A DNA stretch of 64,000 nucleotides, taken from positions 3,410,001-3,474,000 of the forward strand of contig NC_089432.1 in NCBI RefSeq assembly GCF_026210795.1, given 5' to 3'. This document shows, piece after piece, positions 1-51,990 of this stretch. The position numbers and the translations under genes were made by a program. A model generated the notes under the pieces. The model was not told where the DNA came from. It saw only the letters and a list, made by a program, of their open reading frames with translations, and ran no database searches. The DNA is from Rhizophagus irregularis. Taxonomy: Eukaryota. Position 1 is the first letter of the stretch; the number at the start of each line of letters is the position of its first letter.

Positions 1-68
1 TTAATTCTATTATTACTTTAACATATAATTTAAACTAACTAAATTCTTTATTTAAAAATTATTTATAG

Positions 69-1612
69 AGTGTAAGTTATTTATTTTTTATTACATACAA
101 TTTATATAATTTAAGCTAACTAAATTCTTTATTTAAAAAATTATTTTGTAATTTTTTTAGTTAGAAGTAGCATCGAAGAATTTGAGGAAAATGACTCTGA
201 AGAATTCAAAGGAAATGACTCTGAAGAATTTGAAGAAAGTAGTACTAATGAATCTAAAGGTATATTAAACAAACTGAAATATTAAATTTTTGTTTGTAAA
301 TAATTTGAATACTATACCTTATATGATGCACAAATATAATTTAAACTATCTTATATTATACAAAAATTATTTTAAATAATTTAGCTCGTAAGTTGATAAG
401 ATAACTTATAATTGAACAATAATGGGATTACTTACTATTTAATTATATTTCATGTAACTAAATAATTTATTTAATGCATAATAATACTATAGTCAGTAAG
501 TTATCAGTTATTGTTCTTTACTTTACTTATTTTATAAAATATTCAAATAACTAAATTTTTTGTTTTAATAATTAATTATATTACAGATGGTAAGTTACAA
601 CATTATATTTATTTGACAAATATTTTATATATTTTAACTAATTATATTCTTAATTTAAATAATTAGATTGTTAGTAATATATTTAATTTACAGTAAATAT
701 TTTGTACTATGTTTACATCCAATTAATTAATAATTAATAATACTACATAAAGGGTGTAAGTTATATTTATATTTCTATTATTAATATAATTTAAACTAAC
801 TAAATAATTTTATTTAAAAATTATTTTGTAATTTTTATTTAGTTGGTAAGTTATAAATTATTTATTTAATTCTATTATATTACTCATTATATAATATTTA
901 CATATAATTTAAACTAACTAAATTCTTTATTTAAAAATTATTTAATAATATAGGGAGTAAGTTATTTATTTAATTCTATTATAACTTATTTATATAATAT
1001 TTATATATAATTTAAACTAACTAAATTTTTTATTTAAATAGATTGTAAGTTATAAGTTATTTAGTTCTATTATTACCTATTTATATAATATTTACATATA
1101 ATTTAAACTAACTAAATTCCTTATTTAAAAATTATTTTGTAATTTTATTTAGTTGGTAAGTTTAAGTTATTTATTTATTTATTTCTATTATTACTTATTT
1201 ACATAACATTTATAATAATTTAAACTACTTAATTCTTCATTCAATAATTTTATTTAGTTGGTAAGTTATAAGTTATCTATTTAATTTTATTATTACTTAT
1301 TTATGTAATATTTTACATATACTGTAATTTAAATTAACTAAATTTTCTATTTAATAGATTGTAAGTTACAAGTTATTTAATTCTATTATTACTTATTTAT
1401 ATAACTAAATTCTTTATTTAAATAGATTGTAAGTTATAGGTTATATTTATTTTACTTATTTATATAATATTTACATATAATTTAAACTAACTAAATTCTT
1501 TTTTAAAAAAAATTATTTAATAAATATAGGGAGTAAGTTATTAATTAATTCTATTATTACTTATTTATACTAACTAAATTCTTTATTGGAAAATTATTTA
1601 ATAATATAGGGG
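69..1612 (+). CDS. Candidate micro-exon gene (partial; 5' end outside window, 3' end unresolved): fifteen 3-nt exons plus one 99-nt exon
   Basis: AG|NNN|GT(A/T)AGT units at 69-71 AGT, 385-387 CTC, 493-495 TCA, 587-589 ATG, 667-669 ATT, 753-755 GGT, 843-845 TTG, 954-956 GGA, 1042-1044 ATT, 1153-1155 TTG, 1258-1260 TTG, 1358-1360 ATT, 1426-1428 ATT, 1530-1532 GGA, 1610-1612 GGG. Larger exon at 161-259 (acidic NDSEEF repeats). Intervening segments are 65-125 nt with CTAAC/CTAAT-type branch motifs. The spliced product is open in two phases. Confidence 0.7.
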
Positions 1613-1685: not shown

Positions 1686-2038
1686 TATGATATCTAAAAA
1701 ATTATTGTATAATTTATGAATTTTTGTATGAAGGCTTGGCGTGGCCTTTCAAAGAAATGGTCATTCCACAAATTTATACAGTGCTGAAATTTCTGTCATG
1801 TGACTTTATCATTTCTCTATTTCAGTTCTGCGCCCTTTTAAGTAATTATGACATGAAAACTCTTTCCCTTTTTTATGTTTTGTTAGTTTTCTGCTAATTT
1901 AGCGCAAGTTTTTTTTTTTTAGTTTCTATTAGAAACACCAAAGGGGAGAGGCCCAACTGGGTTTTTTGTTCTATACATACCCACATAATAAGGGATTATG
2001 ACTTCAAATAATTTTGTTGAAATAGACTGGTCTTGCAC

Positions 2039-2762: not shown

Positions 2763-3548
2763 TCTTGCACTGTAAATTTCTTCCGGTATAAGCTCTTCTT
2801 CATGGAGAGTAGAGTATGTGTAAGGGTAAATATTATCAATATCAAAGAAAAAATATCCTCAGTAGTAAGAATTATTTGCGGCTCAGTGTTTTGTATAGAG
2901 TTTTCTAAGTCATCTCTTGCTGGTGTTGGGTTACCAAGTTGTATAAAGGAGTGTTGCGAAGTGGAAGATTATTTTGATACTCAACGTAATGCTCCTGTCA
3001 AAGAAATCAGTTATGGAGGGGGCACTTACCTTCACCACCTCCTCATACTCCTTCAACGCCTAATCATAGTGATGTTACTCCTATACCTTTAGATAATATC
3101 ATATCTTCACCTTCGAAAGGCTTTCCTTTCAAAATTTCATTCAAAAAATTTCACGTGACCAATATCAAAAAATCTGGATTTACGTTCAAGAAGTTTCTTT
3201 TTGAGATTGTTGATCAACATTTAAACACCAATCAAATTCATTTGAAGATACACACAAATGATTAGTTATAAATCCACAAGCAAAATTCTGAACGCCAAAT
3301 ATCAAATTAGCAAAAGCCTCCAGCATTTTTTTTCTGCACAAAGAGTTATTCCACGTAGAATTCAAAAAAATATTTCAATTTAATTAGAAATAAACTATTG
3401 GACCGTATCAAGATCATCAAATCACGTGAACAAAAAATTAATGATCATAATTATATGACACGCACTTTTTTTAATTTGATAACATTTTTATTTTGGAATA
3501 TATGTCCCGTGTAATGGTCAAATTACACATGAATTCAACAAGAATAAT

Positions 3549-4023: not shown

Positions 4024-6010
4024 ATTATGTGATACAATTGTGGTATCCATTTTCAAAAACATAACCAGATTTTGGTTATTCGACGAAAAGACAATATATT
4101 TGATAACAACAAAGCAGAGCATGCTAATTTACTTCACGACCGATGGAATAGTAGGGAAAAAAAATTATTGTTTTAAGAAAAACTGGTTGTTCTTATACTA
4201 ACGGTATATAGCCCATTTTATGGAAAATATTCGAGATATTGGACACAAATATATGTATTCCTGTGGACCACAAGACTTACATTTCACACCAAACCACAAC
4301 GATAAAGTAGCTAAACGACAAAGGTCACGATTTGAACATGCTTGCAGACATCTTTTCAATAAGGTCAAACTTCGACCGGGTACTACTTTAAATCATGCAC
4401 AATGTTTATCCATTGTAAAGAAACATAAATTTCTCTTCTTTCCATCTCAGAAGTTCAAATACAGAATTTCTCATCTTACTTACAAGAAAGCTAGGATCAC
4501 TCCTAGCGCTGATGACTATAAGTTTAAAATTTCTTTTAGGCTTCCAATGCCATTTGTTCCTACATCCACACCTTTACCCATTGAAGAAGACGTAATAGAA
4601 GGGACAGTTTTCGCAGTATTACTATACAACCCTACATCTAATATGTTTATCCCTCTCAAATATAGGAATATTATTCCCTCTGATCCTTTATATGATCAGA
4701 ATGGTTGTTATATTATACCTGGGTCACGAGAATGGTTCACATATATGTATAATCTCAAGAAACAATTGGCAATACAAACTGAAGAATGACGTCATCAAGA
4801 ATTTCTTAATAGGGAACATGAAGCTATTGAACAACAACGACTGAGATCTCTTCAACAGTCATTAGCTCAAGCCACATATCACGGCACAAGTCCGAAATAT
4901 CTCAAAAAATGTTGGACACAAACAGCTGATTTGTTGAGTTTTAGTGATACTTATCATAGACGCATGTCGTATTATAATCAGGATCTCATGAACCCTCATT
5001 ATAGTTCAAAACAGGATCAAGCTAAAATTAGACAAGATATACAGGAATTTATCATGGTTTCCCGCAAGTTGTAAGGATCCCTTTATCACGCCGCTATAAG
5101 CAAAAAGATTACACTCAAGGCTATTATACCCATCCTTACGATGCTTACCTCAGTTATGATTCTGCTTTTACTTCTGAAGGCACTAAAGCCCTGGAATCTC
5201 GTCCACTAAAACGTGATGCTTATACGTCACGAAATTTATCATTTTCTGATAATATTACAGTACCTAAATGACTCTGTCAAGATCATCCTTCTGAAATTGA
5301 CTCCACGGTGGCGAAATCGTCAAAGAGTACTAATTTAGCTTGAATTTTATAATATTTTATTTGATTTTTTAGTGTGATTTCATTCATTTTACTTTTTTGT
5401 TTTATTTTCCTTTATAGGAGTTATTTTATATATAGATATTTATCTATTTCTAGTTTCTCAAATTTTCTTTTTTTGTGTTCGTCTATTTTTTTTAGTTCGT
5501 TTCTTTAACAATTAGAATAGTGTGAATCATTCCACCTCTGACAGTATTTACAGGTGGCAGCTATTTGCTGAAAGAACAATACGGGTTTGAATTTTTTTTA
5601 GATTGCCATTTGATTAATTAGCGTAGTCCTACTTTATCAAATAGTACAGATCGAAGAGTGAAGTCCCGTAGGGGATGAAGAATAAAGTTCTATGCACACA
5701 TATTAGATTTAAGTTTTTTTCAAATCCTTTCTTCTCTTATTTGTAATAGTCTGGGTTCTACTACTCTTTTAGATAAAATAAACAGTAATTATGACATCAT
5801 ACAAATCTCATTACTGTTATTAATAAAATTCTAAGCCTCACTATTCCCAAAACAGCTAGTGGCTGAGCTGTGATTAATTAGTAAGTTCGTATTACCTAAT
5901 CTAATAATGACTCATAATAAAACGCGTACTCCTAGACTTCTTAGTCATTTAAAATTTTCTGTTTTTTCACAATTAACACATAAAGAAAATCATCAAAAAC
6001 TTGTACGAAT

Positions 6011-14763: not shown

Positions 14764-17533
14764 TCAAGCCTTTCCGGGGTGTCCTTTGCGTTTAAGGCGT
14801 ATATTATTTCTCTCTTCTTCATTGAAGCCAAGAATTGTGAGTGACTCAACAGGTGCAGAATTGAAATATATTTTTTCGTTTGCTATGTAAATGTAAAAGA
14901 ACATTAGCAAACATTATAATCAAAAAGGAAATTCCAAATTACAAACATACCAGATGCAAATTGTGCACGACTCGCATATGTATATCCATAAAACTTTTGA
15001 AAGTTTTTCATAGACACTAATGCACTGTTTGGTTTATTATCTATAGACAGGTTGTTTTCTTTATTTGCATTCGTTAAGAATAATAAAACCCATTCTTTCA
15101 CCTCAGCCTTATTCATAGCTTCAGCAACCTTATTATATGAGAAAGAGATTTGTTAATCAACAATTTTAACGATGCATGTGCACTTAATATATGAAGCAGT
15201 ATTGTTACCTTTTCATACGTTTTATCGTATAATTCTTGGTTAACCTCCCCAGGCGCATTAAAAAATAAGCAACCAATATATCTCTTGATATTACCTTCCT
15301 TCAGTAAATCAAGGTCAATATAACCATTTCTTACTTCTGTCATGTTTTCATATTTCACTTGATTATTCTTGTAAGTTTTAGTAACTAAATTATATTAGAA
15401 TGGGATTTGAGTCTGATGTGATTTGTTATTAGAAAAAAATCAGCAAAACATAATACCTGGGTATCGATGTAGTGATCTGTACAATTTGATATCTATAATT
15501 TTAGGTAAATCAACTTCAACATCTGGAAAACTAAGAGAGAAATCCGCACCTTTAAAAAGAGTCTTCAACTTAATCTGCTTATATCCTATTAAATGAAAGA
15601 GTCTGAGGCGTAATGCCCAGAACTTGGCATTAAAATCTTCAAAATTCTGCCATGGCTCATCATATCTTAACATCATGAATTTCAAATACATCATCCCATG
15701 GTCATCAGAACTTTCAACAATTGCACATACCCACACATAAGGTAAGCGAATAAGGTATTCTCCACGTTCTTCTGTTGGAACCAGGTTCACAACTCCCATT
15801 GAGCTAAGTTCCTGGTATGACATTGATATTTTGTTGAGCATGATCGTATCCATTTTTTTAACTGGAAAACCCAATATGGCCTTTGCAAGTGGTATTGTCA
15901 ACCAATGTGAGTTTAGCTCAAGAGAATATTTATCTATAATTTTTTGTTTAACAAATTCCATGATTTTCTTGATATTCACGTTATGAACAGCTGTTTCTAT
16001 TTTCTCTTCCTTTGACATTTTTTCTGTTTTTAGTTTTTTGTGTTCTGCTGCAAATTTTTGTGCAAAATACTCATAGTAATACTCCAATGTTCTCACATGT
16101 CCTCCAATATCACAAATACTTATTCGAAAATAAGGATGCAGTCTGACATATTTATCATCAAATAAATTCATTTTCATACCAATTCTGATTGCATCATCAT
16201 CATTAAGTAAGCGTAGTGGGAGGGGAAGTATTTCATGCATAGAACCTGAAATATAATCATATAAGTGTTCTTCAATTGTTCCAGCGAGAATAGGAATGAA
16301 ATAAATGTTTGGAGGTGGACGACACATAACTCCTCCAATTGCGTTAATAAGTTCCTTACAGATGCCTTTTTCGGTATCATGCAATTTGTTGAACTCGTCA
16401 ATGCCAAGAACCAGGACAAGCAGAGGATTAGAATTTATTTCTTGTTTCTTTTGTATAATAACATCAGCATAAATAATTCGGAGAGCAGTGCTCAGGGTAA
16501 AGCTTGAAATATTCGAATAATTATAGCAGTGTGATTGAAAATGAGAAAATTCTAAACTGCCATAGTTATGATTAGGTCGAAAGTACTCATATAGAATACG
16601 AATTGCAAGTGATGCCTCAGCACCAAAATTTACATCCATAGTTCCAGCAGGGGATCCATTCCCGTAGGTGGTGTTTATGACAGTCATATTGGTGAAAGCC
16701 TTCCGTATTTCTTCATCGTCAGACTCATTAGCATATTGACCGAGCAATCGTTCAACTTCATCCAGAAATCTGCTCTTTCCAACTCCAGGTCCACCCACTA
16801 AGATAGGAATTGGATGAAGGCCTTTGTCACTTACATTACGATATTTAAATCGGGCTTCAATTCCAGCTATCACTGTGCCTTTCCAAAGGGCTTTAATAGT
16901 GTCATCTCTTTGAAGAAACTTGAAGTCTTTGCCATAAGTTTTAACGAGCTGAAAAAGTCAATTCAATTTAGTCAGAGAAGCTAAAGACACATTATTAAAA
17001 AGAGAATAAAGCTTACTAGGTTTCGGCCACGGTTTGGTTTGAATTGTTTTATCCACTCGTAGACAGAAGAATCATCATTCCAATAAGGTTCTAAAAACCA
17101 ATAATAAGTAAGAGATTTGTTATAAAATTTCTTTGACATTAATACACTTACCAGCAGCAGTGGGCAATTGTACGATGACGTGAATGTTCTCATCTACAAG
17201 CGATTGTTCCAAAAAAAGTTTCTTAACTAAGAGGATGGGTACCAACTTCTTGCCTCCAAGCTCTTTTTTAATATCATCTTCAGTAGTAACATGTTTAAGC
17301 TTGTTTTCATCATTGTAAGCGATGTTAACCTTCCAAAGATCCATAATGTCAGAATCATTAATTCCTAACGTAGCTTTTTTCTTATTCCAAATAAGGAACT
17401 TGAGGTCTGAAATCCTTAAATTGTTAATATTGATCAAAGAACCACAAATATCGCTATCATTAGCAATGTTAACCACAAAAGTATCATCAAAAGAAGTCTT
17501 TCCTAGGCATAAACAATTTATTGACACCATCAT
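14764..17533 (-). CDS. Crinkler (CRN) family protein: ubiquitin-like CRN N-terminus, P-loop NTPase, apparently truncated nuclease region; possibly pseudogenised
   Basis: Exon 1 has DLKFLIW, DLWKVNI and HVIVQLP CRN header motifs; Walker A GGPGVGKS and Walker B LVLGIDE in 15440-16873; several GT-AG introns; last exon stops at 14764, while a shifted frame continues to 14712. Confidence 0.85.
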
Positions 17534-17748
17534 TTGTGTAAAGCGATTTATAGAAAGAAGTGTTTTTTAGTGAGAGAGAAATTTTGAGACTCGACCTGGC
17601 AAAAAATAGAAGTGATCCGATCTTAACCACGAAAATGCGAAAAATATCAGTTTTTGCTATAAACAAAAATATAATTGTTTAAAAATATATATTGATCAGA
17701 CTCTTATCAGTAATCATGTACTTCGAAAAAAAAAGAATTTATCTAGAA

Positions 17749-24540: not shown

Positions 24541-25104
24541 CATGGAATATCATTAAAATGTGAATGATTTGGTACGACTATATATAATCACATTAATTAT
24601 ACTGTAAATAAAATTTTATATGTCAGAATTAAGTCAATTTTTCGGCATCAAGCAAGAAACGGTCATATTTCAAAAGTGAATTTATTTTCTAATGTCAAAT
24701 GTAGATTTTTGCAAAAAAATAATTAAATATTACCAAAATTATTTAAAAATATTAATAGATGATATTAATTTTACAATAAAACATTTAATATTTGTGGAAT
24801 ATTTTTTAGAAATAATTTATACATAATCAATAAAAAATATTAATTGTTAAAATTTTGCAAAATTTATATTAATATTAATAATTAAAAATATCAATTTTTT
24901 CATTAATTTTTGCGAAGTATCTTAAAAAAACTTTATTAAATAAAAACACGAAATTAAATATTAGAATTGTGCGACGCGTGATTTGTCTGCGCCTGATCTA
25001 TTTCATGTTCATAATGGCTAAAAACTATGGCAAGCCGAGCTGGACTAAACTATCAGGCATTGGGCGGGTGAAAAATCAAGCATGGATTGACAAAATGTTA
25101 CACC

Positions 25105-25515
25105 GTGCCTGATATTTTACCTGTTCATGCTTGATATTCATCTGTCCGTGCTTGATATTTATCTGTACGTGTTTGATATTTTTATCTGTTCATGCTTGAT
25201 GTTTATCTATCACGTGCTTGATATTTTTATCTGTTCATGCTTGATGTTTATCTGTACGTGCTTGATGTTTTATCTGTACGTGTTTGATGTTTTATCTGTA
25301 CGTGCTTGATATTTATCTGTACGTGCTTGATGGTTTTATCTGTACGTGCTTGATATTTATCTGTACGTGCTTGATGGTTTTATCTGTACGTGCTTGATGG
25401 TTTTATCTGACCATGCTTGACATTTTTATCCGTCCGTGCTTTATGTTTTTATCCGTCTGTGCTTGATATTTTTGTCCGTCTGTGCTTGATGTTTTTGTCC
25501 AACTGTGTTTGATTT
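25105..25515 (+). repeat. 21-23 bp minisatellite in left arm (inverse copy about 29325-29735)
   Basis: Repeated TTGATATTTATCTGTACGTGC variants. Confidence 0.95.
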
Positions 25516-26689
25516 AATCCAACTATGTTTGATAATTTTATCTTTAGTTTCTTTGTCAGCACAGGGTTGATATATTGTCGGTCACATGTTTTTAAGTTTA
25601 GCGTAGTTTTAAAAAAAATTTTTTTTTGAATTGGCTTTTTTTTATAAACAAATTTTGTAGAGAATTTTTATTTTTAATATAGGCAAAGGCTTTGTTTGGT
25701 AGAACTTCTTTGGGAATTTTTTAATAAGATTTTTTTTGATAAAAAATTTCGTTAGAAAATTTTTTTCATTGATAGAGACATTTCTGAGTTTTTTTCTTTT
25801 ATGATAATTTCGGAGAATTTTTTTTAATAAGATTTTTTTTTGACATATACTTAATTTGTTGGAACAATTTTTTTTTTTAACAGGAGAGATTTTTTTTTTT
25901 TGATAGAGAATTAATTGAGAATTTTTTTTTTTGTAGAAAATTATTTGAAGAATTTTTTTAATAGGGAAGATTTTTTTTTTGATAGATAATTTCGTTACTA
26001 GAAAATTTTTTTAACAAGTGAGATTTTTTTTGATAGAGAATTTCGTTAAGAATTTTTTTTTAATAGGAGGGAGTTTTCCTTGATAAAGAATTCTTTTGGG
26101 AATTTTTTTTAATAGTATTTTTGACGGAGAATTTTATTAGAGAATTTTTTTTTTTTTTGATAAAAATTTCATCATAGAATTTTTTTTTTAATAGGTAAGA
26201 TTTTTTTTTTTTTGATAGGATCATTTCGTTAATAATTTTTTTAACAGGAGATTTTTTTTTTTTGATAGAAAATTTCGGTAAAGAATTTTTTTTTTAATAG
26301 GAAGGAAGTTTTTTTTTTATAGAAATTCTTTTGAGAACTTTTTTTAATAGGTAAGAATCTTTGAATTTTTTTTTAATAGGGAAAATGTATTTTTTGATGG
26401 AAGATTTTCGTTAGAAATTTTTCTTAATCAGGGATATTTTTTTTGATTGAGAATTTCATTAGAGAATTGTTGGTTGAAAAGCCTTTTTATTTTTTTGATG
26501 GAGAATTTTGTTAGAAGTCTCAATAGAAAATTTTATTGAAAATAGTTTTTTTTTAATAAGGGTATCGAGAATTTTGGCTTGAAATTTTTTTTTTTAATAA
26601 AGAATTTCATTAGAGATCTTTTTTTTTATAAAAAATTGATTGAAAATTTATTGGAAAATTTTTTATTAAATTTTACAATTTTAATAAAT

Positions 26690-27963
26690 TTTTACTCCTC
26701 TTCATCTTCCCATCACTTCTTTTAATCTTCCATCGCTCCTTTTCGTCTCCCATCATTTCTTTTCATCTCCCATCACTCCTCTTCGTCTCCTATCACTCCT
26801 TTTTGTCTCCCATCACTCTTTTTCATCTCCCATCGCTCCCTTTCGTCTCCTATCACTTCTCTTAATCTTCTCATCACTTCTTTTCGTCTCCCATCACTCC
26901 TCTTAATCTTCCCATCACTTCTTTTCGTCACTCATCACTCCTCTTAATCTTCTCATCACTTCTTTTCGTCTCCCATCACTCCTTTCTATCTCCCATCACT
27001 CCTCTTCATCACCCATCACACCTCTTTGTCTCCCATTACTTCTTTTCGTCTCCCATCACTCCTCTTCGTCTTTTATCACTTCTTTTTGTCTTTCATCACT
27101 CCTCTTAATCTTCCCATCACTTCTTTTTTTTTATCTCCCATCACTCCTCTTTGTCACCCATCACTTCTTTTTGTCTTCCATCACTCCTTTTCATCTCTCA
27201 TCATGTCCTATTTCTCCTTTTGGTTCCTATCACTTCTCATTACTCTTTTTTACTCCCTTTCATCTTCTATTACTTTACTAAAAATGGCCAATTTTTTGAA
27301 ATGATTTTATAATAATTTTAAAATACTACAAAAATACATTTAATACATCAAAATGTTTTTATTATATTTTTGCTATTATTTTGTAATTATATTGTATCTA
27401 GGTCTATAAAAATAACTCAAAATAATATCACAATAATTTTTTAATGTTTTTTGTTATTATTTTATTATTATAATATAATTAACTTTGATATTATTTTAAT
27501 ATTTTAATCTCAAAAATACCTTAAATATATCTTGATATATTTTAAAAATTTTACAAAATAATTGCACAATTGTTTTGAAAGCCATTGTATCTAGGTCTAT
27601 AAAAATATTTCAAAAAATTGGCCATTTTTAGTAAAGTACTTTCCATTACTCCATTGTTATTTTATTCTTTTTTCCTTGATCATTGTAATTTACTTATCTT
27701 TTTTATTTATTGTTATTATTTCTTTTATTTGTACATTTCAATAAAAATAAATATGGTGATTTTATTCTTTAAAATCGTAAATTTGGCTTAAATTTTAATA
27801 TTTGTAAATAAAATTTCATTAAATAAGATTATTTTGAATAAATATGTTTGCAGAAAAAATTTTTTAAAAAAATATCTTTTTAATAATAACCGATCAAAAA
27901 TTAGATACATATTTGAAAAAAAAAACCCAGGCGATGATCGCCCAGGCGACATTTAGCAATCCC
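26690..27963. mobile_element. One-ended copy of a TIR element carrying a 21-bp pyrimidine-rich minisatellite (paralog of 53385-54684)
   Basis: TCATCTCCCATCACTCCTCTT-type array 26690-27270, downstream sequence colinear with 54300-54684, end CAGGCGACATTTAGCAATCCC. Confidence 0.7.
27273..27636. mobile_element. Tc1/mariner-type MITE (TA target)
   Basis: TIR CTTTACTAAAAATGGCCAATTTTTTGAAAT; TA on both flanks; empty site in paralog near 54379. Confidence 0.88.
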
Positions 27964-30825
27964 AATTTATATATATTAAAAGTATTTAAAATAGTAGATT
28001 TTCAAAAATGTTTTTATGCCAATTAATGATAAAAAGAAGAAACACTGCAAACAAATTTCTGCTATATACTTTTCTTAAAGTTAACATTATTAACTTTTTA
28101 ATTTATGTCAGCTCATGCGGAGCTTTACTAGTATATAAAATTTGCTTAATTTACTATGCTACTTAGGATTCTATCATAGTTTTTTTTAATTTTATCTTAA
28201 TCTTATTAATGTAATTTAGTGTTTTTTTAATTTTATAAAAAAAGATCTCTAATGAAATTCTTTATTAAAAAAAAAATTTCAAGCCAAAATTTTCGATACC
28301 CTTATTAAAAAAAAAACTATTTTCAATAAAATTTTCTAGAGACTTCTAACAAAATTCTCCATCAAAAAAATAAAAAAACTTTTCAACCAACAATTCTCTA
28401 ATGAAATTCTCAATCAAAAAAAAATATCCCTGATTAAGAAAAATTTCTAACGAAAATCTTCCATCAAAAAATACATTTTCCCTATTAAAAAAAAAATTCT
28501 TTACCGAAATTTTCTATCAAAAAAAAAATCTCCTGTTAAAAAAATTATTAAAGAAATGATCTATCAAAAAAAAAAATCTCTCCTGTTAAAAAAATTATTA
28601 ACGAAATGATCTATCAAAAAAAAAAAATCTTACCTATTAAAAAAAAAATTCTATGATGAAATTTCTATCAAAAAAAAAAAAAAATTCTCTAATAAAATTC
28701 TCCATCAAAAAATACTTTTCACTTATTAAAAAAAATTCCCAAAAGAATTCTTTATCAAGGAAAACTCCCTCCTATTAAAAAAAAATTCTTAACGAAATTC
28801 TCTATCAAAAAAAATCTCACTTGTTAAAAAAATTTTCTAGTAACGAAATTATCTATCAAAAAAAAAATCTTCCCTATTAAAAAAATTCTTCAAATAATTT
28901 TCTACAAAAAAAAAAATTCTCAATTAATTCTCTATCAAAAAAAAAAAATCTCTCCTGTTAAAAAAAAAATTGTTCCAACAAATTAAGTATATGTCAAAAA
29001 AAAATCTTATTAAAAAAAATTCTCCGAAATTATCATAAAAGAAAAAAACTCAGAAATGTCTCTATCAATGAAAAAAATTTTCTAACGAAATTTTTTATCA
29101 AAAAAAATCTTATTAAAAAATTCCCAAAGAAGTTCTACCAAACAAAGCCTTTGCCTATATTAAAAATAAAAATTCTCTACAAAATTTGTTTATAAAAAAA
29201 AGCCAATTCAAAAAAAAAATTTTTTTTAAAACTACGCTAAACTTAAAAACATGTGACCGACAATATATCAACCCTGTGCTGACAAAGAAACTAAAGATAA
29301 AATTATCAAACATAGTTGGATTAAATCAAACACAGTTGGACAAAAACATCAAGCACAGACGGACAAAAATATCAAGCACAGACGGATAAAAACATAAAGC
29401 ACGGACGGATAAAAATGTCAAGCATGGTCAGATAAAACCATCAAGCACGTACAGATAAAACCATCAAGCACGTACAGATAAATATCAAGCACGTACAGAT
29501 AAAACCATCAAGCACGTACAGATAAATATCAAGCACGTACAGATAAAACATCAAACACGTACAGATAAAACATCAAGCACGTACAGATAAACATCAAGCA
29601 TGAACAGATAAAAATATCAAGCACGTGATAGATAAACATCAAGCATGAACAGATAAAAATATCAAACACGTACAGATAAATATCAAGCACGGACAGATGA
29701 ATATCAAGCATGAACAGGTAAAATATCAGGCACGGTGTAACATTTTGTCAATCCATGCTTGATTTTTCACCCGCCCAATGCCTGATAGTTTAGTCCAGCT
29801 CGGCTTGCCATAAAAAACGTTTTATTATTTGCTGTATTACGTCACAACAAGCTACTATCGTTGATGGTTTATTATAATGAATTACTTTATTTAGTTAACC
29901 ACAAAAAATAATCATGAAAAAATAAACTATACTAAATATATGATGCATTAGTATCTGTAATATCTGTAATTAAATAAATAAATTTCTGATGTTTTTTATC
30001 AACTTCATTTAAAACATTGTATCACCTAGAAAAATTACATTTAAGAAAGAAGTTACAACCGTACAAGCTGGTAGAATGCAAAACAGAATCTTGTCTTATT
30101 GTTTAAAAAATTGCAAAATTTCTTTTAATAAATAATTGTTAAAAAATAATTAATTAAATAGAGTCCATTCAAGACACTTTTTATTGTTTAAAAAAATTAT
30201 GAAACTATAGTATGACCGAAATTGAAAATGAAAATGAAATTAAAACAGTTTTACTTCAAAATATTTTCTTGATTTTTTTTCATGTTTTGGCTGGATCAGT
30301 ACTTCCACAGGAAGCACTTTTTAAAGATGATATATTCAAAGTTGAAACTTCGAAGACTTTAAATTCTTATTTAATAGATTTCCACAAATTTATCATTTCA
30401 TTGTATTAAAGTAAAAAGTTTGTAATGTATTTACTGTTAATGAATTTTATCCTACAATCAATACTGCCCAAGAATCTGGAAATTTATTTCTTCATTAATA
30501 AATCTATTTGGTGTTTCAAAAACTTCCGTAAAAAAGGCTGATATCCCCCAATGTGTGTGGTGCCTGCACAATCCGCGGATAATTATTCGGACATCTCGAT
30601 TATTAAACATAATTCGGGCCAAATTCTGTAGTGCCGACCGGAACTACAGTAACTATAGACACGTGCTTGATCTAGGATAAAAAGTTTATCCGGACCGTAA
30701 ATGATAGTTTGTTGACGTATGTATGACTACATGAATCCTTTTAAATCCATAAATAGAATTTGATTTTAATTGCTTTACTCCATTTTATTTAATATTTTCA
30801 TTATTAAAAAAAATAAATAATAAAG

Positions 30826-33045: not shown

Positions 33046-36000
33046 ATGTTCACCAGGGATAAATTCACCAGGGATAAAAATCACCTCAGGTAAATTCACT
33101 TTTATTATATTATATAATTATATTAAAATTTAATTTTTTTTTTGTTTAAAAAAATCTAAAAAAACTAAAAAAAAATCCAAAAACAAAAGTTGTACAATTT
33201 TAATACATTATATACAATATAAATGAATAAACCATCTAAAAATTAGTTTATATATTATGTACTACTGTAAATCAAGGTAAAATTTACCTCTGATAAATTA
33301 ATTTTAAATTAACCTCTGCTGAATGTCAAATTAATTCACTTTTATAATAATTTTCAAAATAAACACTCAAATAATAAAAAAGTTTTTAAGCCCATGAAAG
33401 AAATTTTTTTTTTTTGAATGGATGAATTTGTTATTTTGTAAAAAAAAAAACTAATACAAAAAAATAGATTAATTACAAATAGTATAGAATTAGGTTATAA
33501 AGGAAAGGTACATCATACTATATAGAGTATAGACCGATAGAATGTGTACATATTTAGGTTTGACCGATTCTATTATTGTTCGTATATTTGCATTAATGGT
33601 AAACGAGGTATTTCAAGAAAAAAACTTGAAAATGTCATCTATAAACCGAAATATGTTATACTCCTTAGATTCCAATTATATCTCAGAATTAGTGAATAAT
33701 GAAGACACTGAAAAGTATTTAAAATAATAAAAAAAAAATTATTTTTAATTTCCGGTTTAGTTTATCACTACAAAATTTAAATTCTAATTACATCTCAGAA
33801 GAATTAGAGCTTGATATAGACATTGAAAGGTATTTCAAATAACAAAAAAAAACAATATTTTTAAATGATACAACTAATTATTTGAATTTATCAACTTTTT
33901 AATTAGTTTATCATCTCCAAAATTTAAGTTCTACAATTCAAAATTTAGAATTAGAGCTTGATATAAACACTGAAAGGTATTAAAAATAATGATAAAAAAA
34001 AATGTTTTAAATAGCACAACTAATTAACATTCGTATAATTTTTTACTTACAAAATTTAAGTTCTGCAATTCAAAATTTTTCAACCTCTTTTAAAAAAAAA
34101 AGAAATGTAGAATTTTTAAAGGTAGTACCTCATGATAATAATGGTAAATATTCATTTGGCTCGATGTTATTTTATTTACTTTCGTTATAACCAATTACGT
34201 TAATATTCATTTAAATCAAATATAAAATATTATTTATAGGAAAACTTATTAAAACCTAATTATCCATAGAACTATAGCAGAAGTAAAATATTTCATTATT
34301 CTGCAAATACAGAGTATATAGAAATATTTAATAATTTTTTATTAGATTTTCTCAATATTAAAAGAAAATAATGTAAAGAAATTAGAATTCAGATATGATA
34401 TTTATTTAAGACTTGTATTTGTAATTTTTATTTCATGTACTATTAGAGATTACGAATGAATTGTTTATTTTTTTTTACATTTATATTTAAAGTAACTGTC
34501 TAATATGAATAAATAACAATAATTCTGAAAATCAATTTTATATTCTTTTTTAGGATTAATTTTATATTCACCAGTGGTTAATTTAAAATTAATTCACCAG
34601 TGGTGAATTTCACTTCAATTTTTATAAATTTTTATTAAAATACCAAATTTTAGTAATTTAATGGTGAATTTCACCTTGATTTACATGTATTACATATATG
34701 TGTTACATTAAATTTTTAAAATTTTATGGTGAAATTCACCTTCGGTGAATTTTACCCTAATTTACATAATGTATAAACAAACTTTTAGCCTTAGAACGCC
34801 ATTTTTCTTTTTTTGTTTTTATAATTTTCTTTAAAGAATATAAACAATATGGAGGATTCTAATGATTATAATAAAGATATATATAAGACAAATGCATTTT
34901 TTTCGCCATATTCTGAAACTTTAGACTTTTTATTATCACCATTTAATGATAATTTTGCTATAAATTTTTTACCAGTTGTTGAACCAGATTTTAATCATAA
35001 TTTTACAAACATAGATAGTTTTTCTCTTGAAACACCTTCTAAACCATCTATTAACCCTTCTTTAGAGTTACTTTCTGAGCCTTCTTTAGAGTTATCTCCT
35101 GAACCTTCTTCTGAACTTTCTTCTGAACCTTCTTGTGAAACTCCTTTTGAACTACCTTTTGAAGAACATTTTGAATCATTATCTGAACAGATTTATCAGT
35201 ATAATCTTACTGTAGGAGATTATTTTGATGATTGGCAATCAGTTGATACATTTATGCATCAATATTGTTTAGAAAGAGGGTTTGGATATCAAGTTTATCG
35301 AAATGATAAAGATCCAAATGATTTTACTATTATACGACGTAAATCATTTCGTTGTTCTTCAAATGGAAAATATGAATCCAGAAAAGTAATAGATCAGAAA
35401 TTGCATCATTTACGTGGTACTATAAAGACAAATTGTGAGTGGCACTGCAACTTCTCATTTCCAAAAACGGCAAATCAAGTAAAATGTACATCATTAAAAG
35501 ATATACATAATCATGAAGTAAACCCTACCCAATTACCTCATATCATTGCTAGATATAGACGTTTTGATAACGAAATGATAAAAGACTTGAAATTTTTTTT
35601 GGATTGCAAAGTTGCACCTATTATACAACTAGAAATTCTTAAAAGAAAGTATCCAGAACATGTATTTCATAAACAAGACGTTTATAATGCTATTTATAAT
35701 TTATGCCAGAATAATAAAAATGAAAGACCTGACTCTTTATTATTTCTTGATATCTTATTTGAAAAAATGACTCAAGACCCACGTTGGAAAGTTTTTGTTC
35801 GTCATACTGGTAGTGAAAATCGCCTATCAGGTATATTTTGGATATCTCCTAGTCAACTAGAATTGTATAGGCGATTTTCTGATATAGTATTAAATGACAA
35901 TACTTGTAAAACTAACAAGTATAATATGTACTTAAGTGTATTTATGATAAAAGATAACTATGGAAGATTTCGCAATGTGGCAAATGCTTTAATAGAAGAT

Positions 36001-38265
36001 GAACTTTCTTCAACATACACTTGGATTTTACAATGTTTGGTAAAAGCAACTGACAATATAATTCCAAAATCATTTTGGACTGATTCTGAACCTGGATTAA
36101 TTAATGCTGTTGCTCAAGTTTTTCCAAATACACCACATTTTTATTGTATGTTTCATATATGGCAGAATATTATAAAGCATCTTAAATCCAAATTAGGCGA
36201 AAACTTTAGTAATTTTAGTAAAGCTTTCTATGCATGTAGAAATGCATTATGTATAGAGATTTTTGAACAACGTTGGGAATTTATGATAAAATCATTTCCA
36301 AACTGTGAACGTTATATGACTAGAACATTATATAATAATAGAATTAGTTGGGCTAAAGCATATATGCCATTCCAGTTTAATAGTGGTATACAAAGTACCC
36401 AAAGTGTAGAATCGTTTAATAATATTATTAAAAGGTCTTTAAATAGTACAAGTACACTTTGTGAGGTAGAAGAAGCTATAAATAAGAGATATGAAGAAGA
36501 AATTAGATATTGTCAATTAACAGATCTTAAAGCAAAGTATACAACAGTTGGACTTCCACATCTTTCTTCTCAATTTTTTTCAGATGTTGATACAGTTATT
36601 GTTGAATTTTTAACATCTCTTATATTATCTTTACAACGTTTTCAAATTTCACAATCATTTACTTATGAAGGGCAATTAATATCTTGTTCATTTGATGTAT
36701 GTATTATTTCTTAAAAAATAAAACTATTGATATTAATTGACATTTATAAATAAAAAACATTATTTTTCATTACAGACCTTCTAATACTCCAGATGATAAT
36801 TTTGTAGAAGATATAGTAGATGAACCACAAGTAATGTTAAAATCTATATTAAATGATATGGATATATCAAATGTTGTTGAAACTTGGAAAATTTGTCAAG
36901 TAGGAGGTATTTCTCAAAAAGAAAATTTAGTAGTTCTTTTTAATGATGGATCACATATTTGTACTTGTTTGGAAACAATTACAAAAGGAATAATTTGCCA
37001 CCATTTTTGGAGAGTTATGCTTTATTCTAATACAGCAAAATTTCATATTAGTATTATTCCTATTAGATGGTACAAAGATGATATTTTAATGAAATTAAGT
37101 AGTAGTATACTTGAAAATTCACCTGTTCTTACAGCAGTAGAATCATCTGATACAGCAATGCTACATACAGTAGATTTTACTCTTCAAAGTTTGAAAAAGC
37201 ATTTTCAAGGATCTTATAATAACAAAATTATTCAACAAATTATTCCTAAAAGAAATAAATTTGGAGTAGCATTTTCAACTGCAAAGACTGCAATTAATAT
37301 TGCATTAGAAACTGGATGTGATAACGAATTAGTAAAATTGTTAAGAGATTTTATTTCAACTAAACAAAGAAGTCGAAATGCAGTTGATTTAGAAAATAAT
37401 ATGGAAGTAGAAAATATTGAACATGACGAAAATCAAAATAATATACTTCCTTTACAACAACAACTAATTGATATAACAGCAGATCCTTATGTTACTAAAA
37501 TTCGGGGAGCTCCTTGTAAAAAAAGAATGAAGAGTAGTATTGAAGTGATGGGAAGAAAAAAGGTAATGCATGAAACTTCAAATCATGTTAATGTACAAGA
37601 GACTGATAATAGTGGAGGAACATCAAAGTCGCAACGAAAATGTTTGTTATGCAAAAAACCGGGACATTATCAAAAGAAATGTCCAAGTATAAGAGAGTAA
37701 GACAGCAAGTGTGATGTTAATATAACGATAAGATGCAGTGCATGATATATATAGGTTCGTTAGATCATTTGATTATCTAATAGTTGATAAAGTAATATAT
37801 ATATGCGCATTATACTAATTAATAATTTAATTGCGTTACGTATTACTTAATTAGAGCGAACGCGAAATTGTACAATGTTGCGATACGTTTTTTAGGGGGA
37901 AGAGAAAAATCTATATAAAGAACTGCTGTCCACAGGTGGGTGGAAATTTTTTTTTTTATTCATTGCTTCTAATGAAACTTAATCATTTTTTACTCAATAA
38001 TCATAATAAAATATTCATTAGAAAGAGGAGAAAATTCTACACGTTTTTATTCATTTAAATTGTACTTTTTATTATATTTTTGATGATATAATGCCATGTT
38101 AAAAATTGGAATTTTTAAAATTTTTTTTTGTTTTGTTTTTTTTTGTTTTTTTATTTTTTTAAAAATAAAAATTTAAATTACGTAATATTTATTTCTGGTG
38201 AATTTTACCTGTGGTGAATTTTACCCCTGGTGAATTCACCCCTGGTGAGCGTTAAGATCATCCTC
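33046..38265 (+). mobile_element. Mutator-like element (MULE, FAR1 type)
   Basis: Inverted subterminal arrays of TTCACCAGGG / GGTGAATTTTACC motifs at 33046-33100 and 38196-38265 enclosing a transposase gene; left outer terminus and TSD not recognisable. Confidence 0.75.
34849..37700 (+). CDS. FAR1/MULE transposase with SWIM and CCHC zinc fingers (two exons; splice phase questionable)
   Basis: FAR1 DNA-binding region (FRC..CEWH..HNH), DDE core (NDNT, WTDSE, YCMFH, VESFN), SWIM CTC..GIICHH, knuckle CLLCKKPGHYQKKC; intron about 36697-36775. Confidence 0.9.
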
Positions 38266-44050: not shown

Positions 44051-46198
44051 CTATTTATGTTTCTTTAATTCATTTAATCTGTCTTGAGCATATTGATATC
44101 CTTGCTCAGCAGATTTTTCATACCAATAAGTTGCTTGATTTATATTCTTTTTAATTACTTCTCCATTTTCATACATCGAAGCAAGATTATATTGAGCATA
44201 ACTTTCACCTAAATTTGCAGCCTTTTGATATAATTCAAATGCCTTTTGTTTATCAATACTAGTTCCAATTCCTTTTACATAACAATATCCTAAAGCACAT
44301 ATTCCAGATAATTCTCCTAAATTTGCAGCCTTTTGATATAATTCAAATGCCTTTTGTTTATCAATATTAGTTCCAATTCCATTACTATAACAATATCCTA
44401 AATTATATATTCCACGTGAATTTCCTAAATTTGCAGCTTCTTGATATAGTTCAAATGCTTTCTTGTTATTAACACTGGTTCCAATTCCATAATTGTAACA
44501 ATATCCTAAACTGGTTATCCCAAATACATTTCCTGAATTCGCTACATTTTGGTATAACTCAAATGCCTTTTGTTGATCAACATTAACTTTAATTCCAAAG
44601 TGATTAAATATTCCAAGTAAAAAAACAGAATTTAAATTATTTTGATTATTTAATAACCAAGCATAAATTTCTTGTGAAGTTATATTATAATTATTAAGAT
44701 AATTAATGACTTCATGTTTTTTCCTTACAATTTTTGTTTTATCAAGTAGGAGTATTATTTCATTAACTATTATGTCAAAGTTATTGATTGATGACATTGT
44801 AGGTTCTATTTCTTCTATACTCATTTTATTAAAATTTTTAATGATTTGAGACATTTCTCCGTATAATAAATTATCAATAATATTTTTGGGAACTTCACCA
44901 TTACTCTTCTGTTCACTTGATAATTGAACATTTTCTTTTGGAATAATTGCATTTAATTTTGCAATAACCTGGTTGACAGTTGGACGATTATCTGGTTCAT
45001 TATTCCAGCAATCTGATATAAATAAGCTTATAATTAATCAATATTGTCATTATTAATATAATTAATTTAATTGTACTTACCAGTGTATATTTTTATGTAA
45101 TCTACAGGTGTATTAGGAATAGGTTTTTCTCTAAGACCTTGTAAAATTTCCATAGCCAAACCAACATCATGTGGTTCATTATGAAAAGGTGGCCGTCCAC
45201 TAGAAATTTCCCACAAGAGTATGCCAATACTGTAGATGTCACTCTTTTTATTTAATGAATATACTATTTTGATATTATTACTATCCCTTTTGCTATTAAA
45301 TACTTGTGGATCAACATATGCAACCATTCCAAATAATTTTGATTGAACATTGGATGATTCTTCAATCCTTTTTGACAATCCAAAATCTGCTAATTTAATG
45401 GTATTCTTATGAACTAATATATTATTTGAGTGCTATTATTAAATGCAATGACTAAATTAGTATAATTATACAGTATAAACAGTATAATTTATTAAAGTGT
45501 AAATAACTGAAGTAAATTAACCTACCAAATCATGATGAACGATATCTTCATCATGTAAGCATGATATAGCATTAGCTAATTGAAATGCTAGTTCCAATTT
45601 ATTGTTCCAAGTGAGATTATCAAAATGTTCACTTAAATAATTTCGGAGAGTACCACTATTGGCATATTCCATAACCAGTAAATATTTTTTTGAATTATTG
45701 TCTTGGTTTGCTTTTGAGGAAAAAAAGAAAAATTATTCGGATTTATTTTTTTTTCAAAAAAAAAAGATAATAATGATTCAAATTACATATCATACCTGCT
45801 GTTGTAATGCCACAAAAACGAATAATGTTTTCATGAAAATCAATTTTGCGCTGAAGATTAATCTAATATTGAAATAAAATTTTAAGTTAGAAACGTAATA
45901 TATAATTAAAGATAGAAAAACAAAAAAAAATGATAAAATGTCAACATATACTAGTTATAATTACTTCATTAACAATTTCTTTAACTGTAGCATTATTGAA
46001 ATTAAAGAAAGATTTTAATGCTAAATGATTGCAAAAACTTTTCCAGTTAGCACGATATACTTTTCCAAAATTTCCAAAACCAATTTCTTGAATATTATTA
46101 AAATGCTTGTAATCGTAATATTTAATGTGCTTTTTTGCAATAGCTTCTTCAATCCAATCAATCCACTCATTTGAATTAAATTTAGTATTACTAGACAT
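44051..46198 (-). CDS. Tyrosine-kinase-like kinase with C-terminal Sel1-like repeats (copy 1)
   Basis: IGFGNFGKVYRA, HHDL|HS, LADFGLSK, SDIYSIGILLWEISSG; Sel1 repeats (LGYCY..GIGT..D.QKAFELYQKAA); five exons joined by GT-AG introns. Confidence 0.9.
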
Positions 46199-48298
46199 TG
46201 TTACAAAACTTTGATTCAGTTTATACTTAAAGTTTAATAATAAAAGGATAATTATAAAAAAATGATTTTAAGGTAAAAACGTTAAAGTTATATAAAGTTA
46301 TGAACTTCTTAATTTGAACGAGCTCATGGTCATCGTAACGTAGTGCAAGAATGTTGTGTCTCTGTGCTCCCACGAAGGTCACATCATACATAGATCACGT
46401 GATCTTAAATATCAAACTTTATGCAATGACTAAAAAATTTCTTTGATATAAATATTTTTCAAGTAAAAGGAAAAAAAATTACACAATACCATTAATTTAT
46501 ATATAAATATTTAGAGGAATGAATGCACAAACAAGCGTAACGTAAGTATTATGTACACGTCAAAATAAAAAACAATTAAAATATTTCTTAAATAAATTAG
46601 TTGTATAATTATTTATGTTTGAATTGTATTGTACAAGAGTTATAAATAAGAGAATTTTCATAAAAATTTATTATAATAAAAGATGTATTCCTTATAAAAG
46701 AAAACTTCAGAAAAAATCAAAGCAAATAGAATTAAAATATTGAGCAAAAATGGAGTTGTAAATAAAATTAAACGTGTTAAATTTTTAAGTATGTAATTTT
46801 TAATTTCATGCACTCTTATTAATTTAAAACCAAAAATTATAAAATTTGAATATGCAACTTGATTGCAATTTTGGCCACAATTTTTTGAGAAACTTGCAAT
46901 ACTTAATTTTGCATAGGCTAAATTTATATAATTTTCTTTTTTTTAAAGAAATAAATTAGTTATCTGAGAAAAGATTGTATATTTGTTTATAATATTGTGT
47001 AAAAAAGTGTTTCTTGAGGAAAATAGTTTGTTATTAATGAAAGAACTCTTTAAAAGACTTTAGTTAAGAAGGACCGTTAAAAAACGGTTGTGTAAAAAAT
47101 TTGTGCCAAAATTTACGGAAAGGGTTCTTTTCTCTAATAAAAATATTTAAGGTCGAGCGTACATCTGACTTACGTTACTGTGAACTGACGAGAATCGACT
47201 AAGGCAATATTAATAAGAAATTTTATTCTGGAAAATTAAGAAAAATTTCCTTTTTTTTTTGCCTCGAAATAATTTAATATAAAATTTTAGGAATGAATTT
47301 TTTTTTTCTGACTCGCTCTGCTTATCACTATTCAAACTGTGGATTCAACTTCAATATCACCCGTACGCCTCAAAAAATAAAAATTAGACTTCGCAAACCT
47401 ACAAAATTTTATCACTTTTATTTCCATTGAATTTCGCTTAATTACTTCCACGATGTTCACAACTGATGACACACGTGGAAGTTTCACATTATACAACAAG
47501 AAGCCAGATATTACTTATTATGATTAAGACCAAAAGATTTCAATTGGTATTATTCTCGTTTCTTAGTGATTACAAATAACGAGGATCTAATTATCATTAT
47601 TGTAATGTAGGCAAGTTGTTATTTATTTGTAAATTGTAATTTTACTAATATTTCTTTTCTATTGTATCTTAAATCTATTTTTTTTTTATAGAAATAAATG
47701 AAATTTGTCAAGATAGTGAGCATAATATTGGATGAAGTTGCTTTTTATGTGAAAGTTGAGTCAAATAGTTTAAATTACTAGCTCGTATATTGAAGTTAGT
47801 TTTACTTCTATTTTCTTTTACTATTATTCATGTTGTACTATATAGTACATAAAGATTTATTGATTTTATATTTACTAGGAATATTCTATAAAAATAAAGA
47901 TTTTTTTATTTTTATGCTCACTTGATGATTACTACTTAATATAAAACTATAATACAGTATATTTGCAACTGCCAACATCGTCTGGACATCATACCAGTTG
48001 ACATCTGAATATTATTTTTATGTTTATAGAGTATTTATTTGTTTTCGTTAAATTTTTTTTTTGTTTTTTAACGTTAAATTTTGTTCGTTATATTGGATCT
48101 GAATTACCGCTTTCATAAGGTTTTCATATATACTATTTAGCAGGCAACATGAAATCCAATTATACATTGTGAATATAAAATATTTCCATGCTGATTGTTA
48201 TAGATAACTAATAATATAAAATATCATTAATATCATTATGATTATTTTAGATAATTAACCATATCGTTAATAAACCTTACACTTATTGGATAGGAAGC

Positions 48299-49097: not shown

Positions 49098-51990
49098 CAT
49101 TTTTATCCCATACTAATATAATTAAAAAAAAAGTAATTCGTAACAGAATTTATTAAATAAAGTCAATAAATTATACAAAAAATCCTATTCATGTTTCTTT
49201 AATTCATTTAATCTGTCTTGAGCATATTGATTTCCTTGTTCAGCAGATTTTTCATACCAATAAGTTGCTTGATTCATATTCTTTTTAATTACCTCTCCAT
49301 TTTCATACATTAAAGCAAGATTATATTGAGCATAACTTTCACCTAAATATGCAGCCTTTTGATATAATTCAAATGCCTTTTGTTTATCAATATTAGTTCC
49401 AATTCCTTTTTCATAACAATATCCTAAATTGTATATTCCAGATAAAAGTCCTAAATTTGCAGCCTTTTGATATAATTCAAATGCCTTTTGATTGTCAATA
49501 TTAGTTCCAATTCCATTACTATAACAATATCCTAAATTATATATTCCACGTGAATTTCCTAAATTTGCAGCTTCTTGATATAGTTCAAACGCTTTCTTAT
49601 TATCAACACTGGTTCCAATTCCATAATTATAACAATATCCTGAACTAGTTATCCCAAATACATTTCCCAAATTCGCTACATTTTGGTATAACTCAAATGC
49701 CTTTTGTTCATTAACATTAACTTCAATTCCAAAGTGATTAAATATTCCAAGTAAAAAAACAGAATTTGAATTATTTTGATTATTTAATAACCAAGCATAA
49801 ATTTCTTGTGAAGTTATATTATGATTATTAAGATAATTAATGACTTCATGTTTTTTCCTCACAATTTTTGTATTATCAAGAAGGAGTATTATTTCATTAA
49901 CCATTATATCAAAGTTATTGATTGATGACATTGAAGGTTCTATTTCTTCTATACTCATTTTATTAAAATTTTTAATGATTTGAGACATTTCTCCGTATAA
50001 TAAATTATCAATAATATTTTTGGGAACTTTATCATTACTCTTCTGTTCACTTGATAATTGAACATTTTCTTTTGAAATAATTTCATTTAATTTTGCAATA
50101 ACCTGGTTGACAGTTGGACGATTATCTGGTTCATTATTCCAGCAATCTGATATAAATAAGCTTATAATTAATCAATATTGTCATTATTAATATAATTAAT
50201 TTAATTGTACTTACCAGTGTATATTTTTATGTAATCTACAGGTGTATTAGGAATAGGTTTTTCTCTAAGACCTTGTAAAATTTCCATAGCCAAACCAACA
50301 TCATCATGTGGTTTATTATGAAAAGGTGGCCGTCCACTAGAAATTTCCCACAAGAGTATGCCAATACTGTAGATGTCACTCTTTTTATTTAATGAATATA
50401 CTATTTTGATATTATTATCCCTTTTGCTATTAAATACTTGTGGATCAACATATGCAACCATTCCAAATAATTTTGATTGAACATTGGATGATTCCTCAAT
50501 CCTTTTTGACAATCCAAAATCTGCTAATTTAATGGTATTCTTATGAACTAATATATTATTTGAGTGCTATTATTAAATGCAATGACTAAATTAGTATAAT
50601 TATACAGTATAAACAGTATAATTTATTAAAGTGTAAATAACTGAAGTAATTAACCTACCAAATCATGATGAACGATATCTTCATCATGTAAGCATGATAT
50701 AGCATTAGCTAATTGAAATGCTAGATCCAATTTATTGTTCCAAGTGAGATTATCAAAATGTTCACTTAAATAATTTCGGAGAGTATCACTATTGGCATAT
50801 TCCATAACCAGCAAATATTTTTTTGAATTATTGTCTTGGTTTGCTTTTGAGAAAAAAAAGAAAAATTATTCGGATTTATTTTTTTTTCAAAAAAAAAAGA
50901 TAATAACGATTCAAATTACATATCATACCTGCTGTTGTAATGCCACAAAAACGAATAATGTTTTCATGAAAATCAATTTTGCGCTGAAGATTAATCTAAT
51001 ATTGAAATAAAATTTTAAGTTAGAAACGTAATATATAATTAAAGATAGAAAAACAAAAAAAAATGATAAAATGTCAACATAAAGTTATAATTACTTCATT
51101 AACAATTTCTTTAACTGTAGCATTATTGAAATTAAAGAAAGATTTTAATGCTAAATGATTGCAAAAACTTTTCCAGTTAGCACGATATACTTTTCCAAAA
51201 TTTCCAAAACCAATTTCTTGAATATTATTAAAATGCTTGTAATCGTAATATTTAATGTGCTTTTTTGCAATAGCTTCTTCAATCCAATCAATCCACTCAT
51301 TTGAATTAAATTTAGTATTACTAGACATTGTTACAAAACTTTGATTCAGTTTATACTTAAAGTTTAATAATAAAAGGACAATTATAAAAAAATGATTTTA
51401 AGGTAAAAACGTTAAAGTTATATAAAGTTATGAACTTCTTAATTTGAACGAGCTCATGGTCATCGTAACGTAGTGCAAGAATGTTGTGTCTCTGTGCTCC
51501 CACGAAGGTCACATCATACATAGATCACGTGATCTTAAATATCAAACTTTATGCAATATGACTAAAAAATTTCTTTGATATAAATATTTTTTCAAGTAAA
51601 AGGAAAAATAAACATTACACAATACCATTAATTTATGTATAAATATTTAGAGGAATAAATGCACAAACAAGCGTAACGTAAGTATTATGTACACGTCAAA
51701 ATGAAAAATCTACCACACAATTAAAATATTTCTTAAATAAATTAGTCGTACAATTATGTTTGAATTGTATTGTACAAGAGTTATAAATAAGAGAATTTTC
51801 ATAAAAATTTATTATAATAAAAGATGTATTCCTTATAAAAGAAAACTTCAGAGTATGTAATTATTAATTTCATGCACTCATTAATTTAAAACCAAAAATT
51901 ATAAAATTTGAATATGCAACTTGATTGTAATTTTTACCCGCAATTTTCTATGAGAAACTTGCATAATCTTGCACTATTCTTACATAAACT
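49098..51990. repeat. Segmental direct duplication of about 43600-46925
   Basis: Near-identical exons, introns and upstream region, offset about 5.13 kb. Confidence 0.92.
49185..51328 (-). CDS. Tyrosine-kinase-like kinase with C-terminal Sel1-like repeats (copy 2)
   Basis: Same exon structure and motifs as 44051-46198. Confidence 0.9.

Follow-up and report, generated by a model that had tools for sequence, protein, structure and literature searches.

We analysed a 64-kb window (the whole stretch of 64,000 nucleotides) of Rhizophagus irregularis DNA and found at its left edge fifteen units with canonical splice signals, in each of which the putative exon is only three nucleotides long. These units are probably the front half of an R. 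irregularis gene family, in which the tiny exons would be spliced serially between an acidic head and a kinase domain, and the copy in the window would be a truncated relic that carries no kinase.

The pattern AG-NNN-GT[AT]AGT occurs 15 times on the forward strand, always within 67-1612. A pattern count returned every element claimed in the initial annotation at its position: a triplet at 69-71, a further 14 in succession from 385-387 to 1610-1612, and a 99-nt exon at 161-259. The donor reads GTTAGT just once, at 670. The rest of the forward strand of the 64-kb window contains 0 such sites and the reverse strand 1. Three nucleotides is the only enriched distance between AG and donor: within 1-1700 it accounts for 15 sites, while the other offsets from 0 to 15 together total 1, and among the 46 other GT[AT]AGT sites of the window an AG stands at -3 in 1. 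Shuffling, the control named in the initial annotation, gave a mean of 0.04 sites and a maximum of 2 over 1000 dinucleotide shuffles, compared with the 15 seen. The spacers between the triplets do measure the claimed 65-108 nt; the one that follows the 99-nt exon has 125 nt and the donor GTATAT. Their GC content is 8-18%, and none has an internal AG within its last 45 bases. The branch-like CTAAC/CTAAT motif, which had been ascribed to the spacers in general, is present in the last 60 nt of 9 out of 17 and missing there from the remainder. Both exon lengths, 3 nt and 99 nt, are symmetric (divisible by three). None of the 120 skip junctions of the array creates a stop, an observation that we dropped as a sign of selection because few triplet types are involved.

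The window opens within an intron. Positions 1-68 (+) are the 3' portion of an intron that belongs to the young family described below, ending in AG with ACTAAC at -35 and reaching z scores of up to 11-15 against 846-953 and 1045-1152, and the gene start lies upstream of the window. The 3-nt exon AGT at 69-71 (+) likely closes an array located upstream, as suggested by the A5 model P0001 with its second acidic exon. The 99-nt exon (161-259, +) consists of 24-nt repeats (TRF period 24), and its match to the A5 protein RhiirA5_423633, its codon usage, reads and contigs identify it as a second copy of the head exon of the family. The array that follows has two tiers. The old tier (260-755, +) holds 3-nt exons at 385, 493, 587, 667 and 753, and contig joins and model read-throughs indicate that it is common to the paralogues; its five spacers (260-752) are mutually unlike, with z at most 4 versus shuffles. 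The young tier (756-1612, +) has nine units of intron plus triplet, of the types TTG, GGA/GGG and ATT, with triplets at 843, 954, 1042, 1153, 1258, 1358, 1426, 1530 and 1610. A last intron-like unit (1613-1733, +), placed in the young family by intron similarity, has its first AG past the donor region at 1732-1733. The sequence after it has neither a kinase nor a Pfam match, and 1734-1897 (+) would be either a terminal exon that arose by chance or unrelated DNA where the copy breaks off.

The spacers at 1-68, 72-160 and 756-1733 form one young repeat family (z mostly 4-15) whose periods match at 75-84%, and therefore the 15 sites are not independent. The dissimilarity of the spacers of 260-752, stated in the initial annotation, is confirmed; 10 of the 15 triplets are preceded by a young-family spacer. 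In the nine young units the triplet type is coupled to the last 12 bases of the preceding intron (permutation p 0.004). Since the triplet type travels with the intron 3' end, the young tier likely arose as three kinds of intron-plus-triplet unit were copied and reordered, and not by fast triplet mutation; hypervariability of the triplets was rejected for this reason. The core of the young intron (107-146) is a dispersed intron-like motif. It occurs 6 times in the window, each time within the array, and is also contained, with unrelated flanks, in other abundant transcripts (57 reads in the poly(A) run X21) and in contigs of 1.5-1.7 kb from X6 and X10. Introner elements, for comparison, are near-identical introns at many unrelated sites.

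Transcript evidence comes from reads of four runs (X6, X7, X10 and X21, from four studies), which were compared with positions 1-900 only. A search across sequencing runs had listed none on record as RNA, an outcome to which we give no weight. Of the four, X21 is the sole run on record as poly(A) RNA; X6, X7 and X10, with unrecorded library type, are RNA by guess only. In X7 four contigs extend past 259, and the first 15 letters of their consensus are the triplets at 385, 493, 587, 667 and 753 in this order. Beyond the fifth triplet the consensus diverges from the window (agreement 0.74) and continues with G/A-rich letters that resemble more triplets and not a GTAAGT donor. Additionally, one contig each of X10 and X7 runs for 43 letters past 259 before it enters intron-like sequence resembling 100-163. 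This stretch fits five spliced triplets (15 letters) followed by 28 bases from the start of a young intron that was retained. Among those listed, the contigs that end at 259 show 3-8 differences from the window and hence stem from strains or copies other than this one. Past the fifth triplet the contigs are not identical, which may reflect either paralogues or isoforms. The listed pieces that cross junctions of this copy with zero differences are three in number, all of low depth and all unspliced (X10 165-307, X6 212-426 and X7 234-384). X21, of which about 24% was read with 133 reads matched, has no loose end at 259 among the matches listed. In short, contigs of relatives show the 99-nt exon joined to the first five triplets, and the window copy itself appears unspliced among the pieces listed. 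Splicing is thereby evidenced for 5 of 15 triplets, all of the old tier. The joined five-triplet form comes from contigs of a probable RNA run, and it supports the view that spliceable 3-nt exons are real in R. irregularis.

One could read the young tier differently, as a non-coding minisatellite of copied intron units that are skipped or retained, so that the five old triplets would be the only true exons. The membership of the young spacers in one repeat family with well-matching periods agrees with this, as do the end of the read evidence for triplets at 755 (within the 1-900 compared) and the halt of the partly spliced contigs at a young intron. Against it stand the triplet-like letters with which the X7 consensus continues, the strict spacing of 3 in 9 of 9 young units, whose introns range from 65 to 108 nt, and the kinase model P0055, which reads through a junction like those of the TTG units. 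We consider this reading very improbable.

The acidic head leads from the window to a multi-copy family. A search with the 99-nt exon in the acidic frame gave one protein among 29 candidates, RhiirA5_423633 of R. irregularis, at 91% identity. The downstream part of this model matches the window at 2769-3020 and 4090-4786, showing that it is the syntenic orthologue. Its head, used as the query, retrieved 23 more proteins among 339 candidates (22 from R. irregularis, 1 from R. diaphanus). A HMMER profile scan over 1.84 billion representatives at 50% returned 23 hits, of which 20 are family members; P0040, P0046 and P0048 were dropped as unrelated low-complexity repeats. P0032, listed in one of the family clusters, was set aside as an enolase-like protein. 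By locus name, A5 and A4 have 9 loci each and DAOM 197198 has 6, all short. A second subfamily (P0045, P0054 and P0064) begins Met-Gly-Gln, a possible N-myristoylation start; in other members the second residue is Asp or Ser.

The family models coincide over a first exon of seven residues and over the acidic repeat exon, and diverge from there on. We examined 51 head-bearing database models, and 0 of the 51 spell the residues predicted from the spliced array. Instead, 27 read through the donor of some triplet: 21 end in a read-through of the donor of the first triplet and 3 in variants of the same, 2 read through the third and 1 through the fifth. Another 10 end in a read-through of the 99-nt exon's own donor, and 14 fall into none of these classes. 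The read-through tails match the window at the junctions 260, 385, 587 and 753, from which it follows that the old tier is common to the family and that the array is absent from all 51 records. The proposal of an unannotated fungal family with tiny exons is therefore borne out. No correctly spliced protein was found among the profile-scan hits. A metagenome scan gave 0 matches with the splice-motif pattern and, with the head alignment, 439 pattern matches of which 0 were confirmed. An Atlas search with the acidic head gave no usable hit, and with the other frame one hit at 0.75, to which we give no weight.

Two reading frames are open through the 99-nt exon. In the favoured one it encodes acidic 8-residue repeats of Glu, Phe and Ser, and the array, read in phase 1, a segment rich in Trp, Tyr, Phe, Asn and Asp. 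Codon usage scores the exon at +5.95 in the acidic frame versus -2.31 in the other (reference: 3769 codons from 15 ORFs of the window). The phase-1 acidic reading already put forward from the letters is thus favoured by the exon, with neutral results from the codon usage of the array (1.44 vs 1.0, no separation of the two readings) and from the substitution-position test, which is flat (23 vs 23). As far as sequence can tell, this reading probably holds. The description of the gene as one codon per exon is then right about length, but in the favoured frame each triplet would straddle two codons.

The same splicing in the other frame would give a head of Lys/Leu/Asn repeats, triplets that are whole codons and a hydrophobic, possibly membrane-spanning segment before the kinase, that is, a receptor-like kinase in which an exon of 3n+1 bases would restore the kinase frame. 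The open frame of the 99-nt exon, a mean hydropathy of the array of +2.3 versus -0.5 and the synonymy of GGT, GGA and GGG there speak in its favour. Read as whole codons, the triplets are 86% Gly/Ile/Leu/Val and in this resemble parts of three models (69-93%). In P0054 and P0062 a Gly/Ile/Leu-rich stretch lies ahead of the kinase, and P0025 ends in one. The protein searches, moreover, used the acidic frame and were biased against basic heads. On the other side, the codon usage of the exon disagrees, 0 of 15 kinase models have a basic head and 6 an acidic one (by inspection), and in the acidic frame a Met seven residues ahead of the head exon is conserved in two subfamilies that have diverged. 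We regard the receptor-like version as unlikely and continue with the acidic phase-1 reading.

The initial annotation had proposed a stand-alone micro-exon gene like those of schistosomes. More likely, the array is the front part of tyrosine-kinase-like genes. In two head-bearing models from the list of shorter proteins the head is joined to a kinase. When longer proteins were searched, 15 of 213 candidates were hits, every one a PF07714 kinase of R. irregularis or R. diaphanus; 6 of these bear the acidic head, and the remaining ones begin with unrelated sequence or at, or close to, the kinase. In total, 8 of the 51 head-bearing models carry a PF07714 kinase and 43 do not. Triplet-donor read-throughs lie between head and kinase in 4 of the 8 (P0019, P0039, P0051 and P0054). 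The matched relatives have PF07714/PF00069 domains or none, with no NACHT or ankyrin. In five models an intron read-through before the kinase implies a kinase exon of phase 1, which would be the phase found at the ends of the first and the head exons. Back-translated, this read-through matches an array intron in 4 of the 5, a weak correspondence that extends to 1-3 other places in the window. The likely gene layout runs from a Met exon over the acidic exon and the array to the kinase, as deduced from gene models that are themselves wrong at the array. It is likely that annotation usually splits the gene into a hypothetical protein of 50-70 residues and a headless kinase.

Schistosome micro-exon genes encode secreted proteins made mostly of exons of 6-36 nt, with runs of symmetric tiny exons. 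Such exons are found in both systems, but the family heads here are hydrophilic and lead to a kinase. A secreted-type start was not seen on inspection of the heads, which begin hydrophilic. An SP7-like effector was considered and dropped for want of a hydrophobic leader.

Across the remaining 62 kb of the window we detected no kinase cognate to this copy: the long matches reach 28-38%, and short catalytic pieces match at up to 62%, none of them over the kinase start. Nor did NACHT or ankyrin sequence follow the array in the window. The A5 orthologue has two acidic exons, carries Ile at the position that is Met in 12 of 12 aligned short models, and shares with the window the same unrelated DNA downstream. 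We take the window copy to be a probable truncated relic in which the module of head and array is duplicated and the kinase is missing. On a different view it would be a functional gene whose short product lacks the kinase and consists of the acidic head, the array segment and a hydrophobic tail of 54 residues starting at 1734; such a product might act as a decoy or regulator of the kinases. All 15 junctions of this copy are intact, the frame stays open as far as 1897 when the acceptor at 1733 is used, and most family models have no kinase, which would suit such a gene. Yet the exact matches listed for this copy are unspliced, the A5 orthologue has no Met, and the tail is without a Pfam match or a counterpart among the relatives compared. 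This makes a working short gene improbable, and we retain the truncated relic.

Further downstream, a MITE-like insertion follows the post-array sequence at 2039-2762. It has terminal inverted repeats and internal palindromes and is flanked on either side by a target duplication of 8 bases (TCTTGCAC), a length that we take to suggest the hAT class. The roughly 200 bases at 2769-2968 are inverted with respect to the gene model of the A5 orthologue, with short imperfect inverted repeats at their ends and the MITE at the left end. The fusion of the A5 model to a DUF8211-type ORF (4202-4789), part of which is inverted in the window, was taken as a predictor artefact and set aside.

How could such a gene work? 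Since all exons would be in phase 1, each 3-nt unit would add one residue, and the five old units would give a fixed short motif. Because the units would be frame-neutral, unequal crossover among the near-identical young introns could add, remove or reorder the three kinds of unit without a frameshift, altering the segment by single residues. Each paralogue would thereby gain its own segment ahead of the kinase. This segment would most likely be a recognition or regulatory linker, a putative means to tune what the kinase senses or binds, and exon skipping may add isoforms. One may speculate further about a live kinase subfamily whose recognition segment, encoded at one residue per exon, is reshuffled across paralogues and strains by intron crossover and within a gene by exon skipping. 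It would be an antibody-like generator of diversity for the sensing of nonself or partners in a fungus regarded as long-term clonal, and one case of a layout that immune-type genes of eukaryotes would have invented repeatedly. This extension is tentative, and we rather doubt it.

Codon-sized exon arrays as such are not new. The initial annotation knew of no such family described in this lineage; a fungal precedent is in print, the truffle (Tuber) NACHT-ankyrin nank genes, for which codon-sized mini-exons with alternative splicing are reported (Iotti 2012, as cited in PMC4986451 and PMC13449251). Both systems are fungal and combine an expanded signalling family with a long run of codon-sized exons, here 14 consecutive 3-nt units. 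They differ in phylum, in the domains (NACHT/ankyrin there, a tyrosine-kinase-like kinase here) and in the fixed old tier plus young tandem tier of the array here. Fungi do splice exons of 1-3 nt, and for Coprinopsis cinerea the accessible part of the report gives 27 exons of 3 nt in 26 genes (PMC12230235); those are scattered at about one per gene, unlike the 14 in a row here. R. irregularis has an expanded tyrosine-kinase-like (PF07714) repertoire, according to the portions available of three papers (PMC4219462, PMC6123716, PMC10234402). Relatives with the same head belong to this repertoire by their PF07714 domain, which the window copy does not have, and the subfamily described here is set apart by its acidic repeat head and array. 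Micro-exons go unmentioned in those portions of the three papers, with 0 occurrences of the word "microexon" in PMC6123716 and PMC10234402. Among the matches listed in the open literature, supplements aside (which could hold corrected models), no report of micro-exon arrays in mycorrhizal fungi or in this kinase family was found.

In this model species for arbuscular mycorrhiza, one subfamily of kinases appears mis-annotated in all records retrieved, split at an array that predictors miss. Corrected models would make it testable whether the fungus varies a signalling protein by single residues. Codon-sized exon arrays would extend from NLR-type genes of truffles to another phylum and another domain architecture, and the array offers a natural system for how the spliceosome joins many 3-nt exons in a row.

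The window holds several other features. On the reverse strand, ORFs with a P-loop lie at 15440-17566, and their N-terminus is presumably Crinkler-like. A large fold-back spans 25104-29735, where the arrays of 23/44-base tandem repeats at the two ends are reverse complements of each other; its interior has T-rich and A-rich arrays and a central 20-base pyrimidine array that recurs at 53958-54310. Two long ORFs at 34825-37700 (+) are, we assume, of the MULE-type transposase. Finally, a tandem pair of near-identical kinase genes (44051-46267 and 49185-51397, -) carries 108-base (36-residue) repeats, which we take to be SEL1-like.
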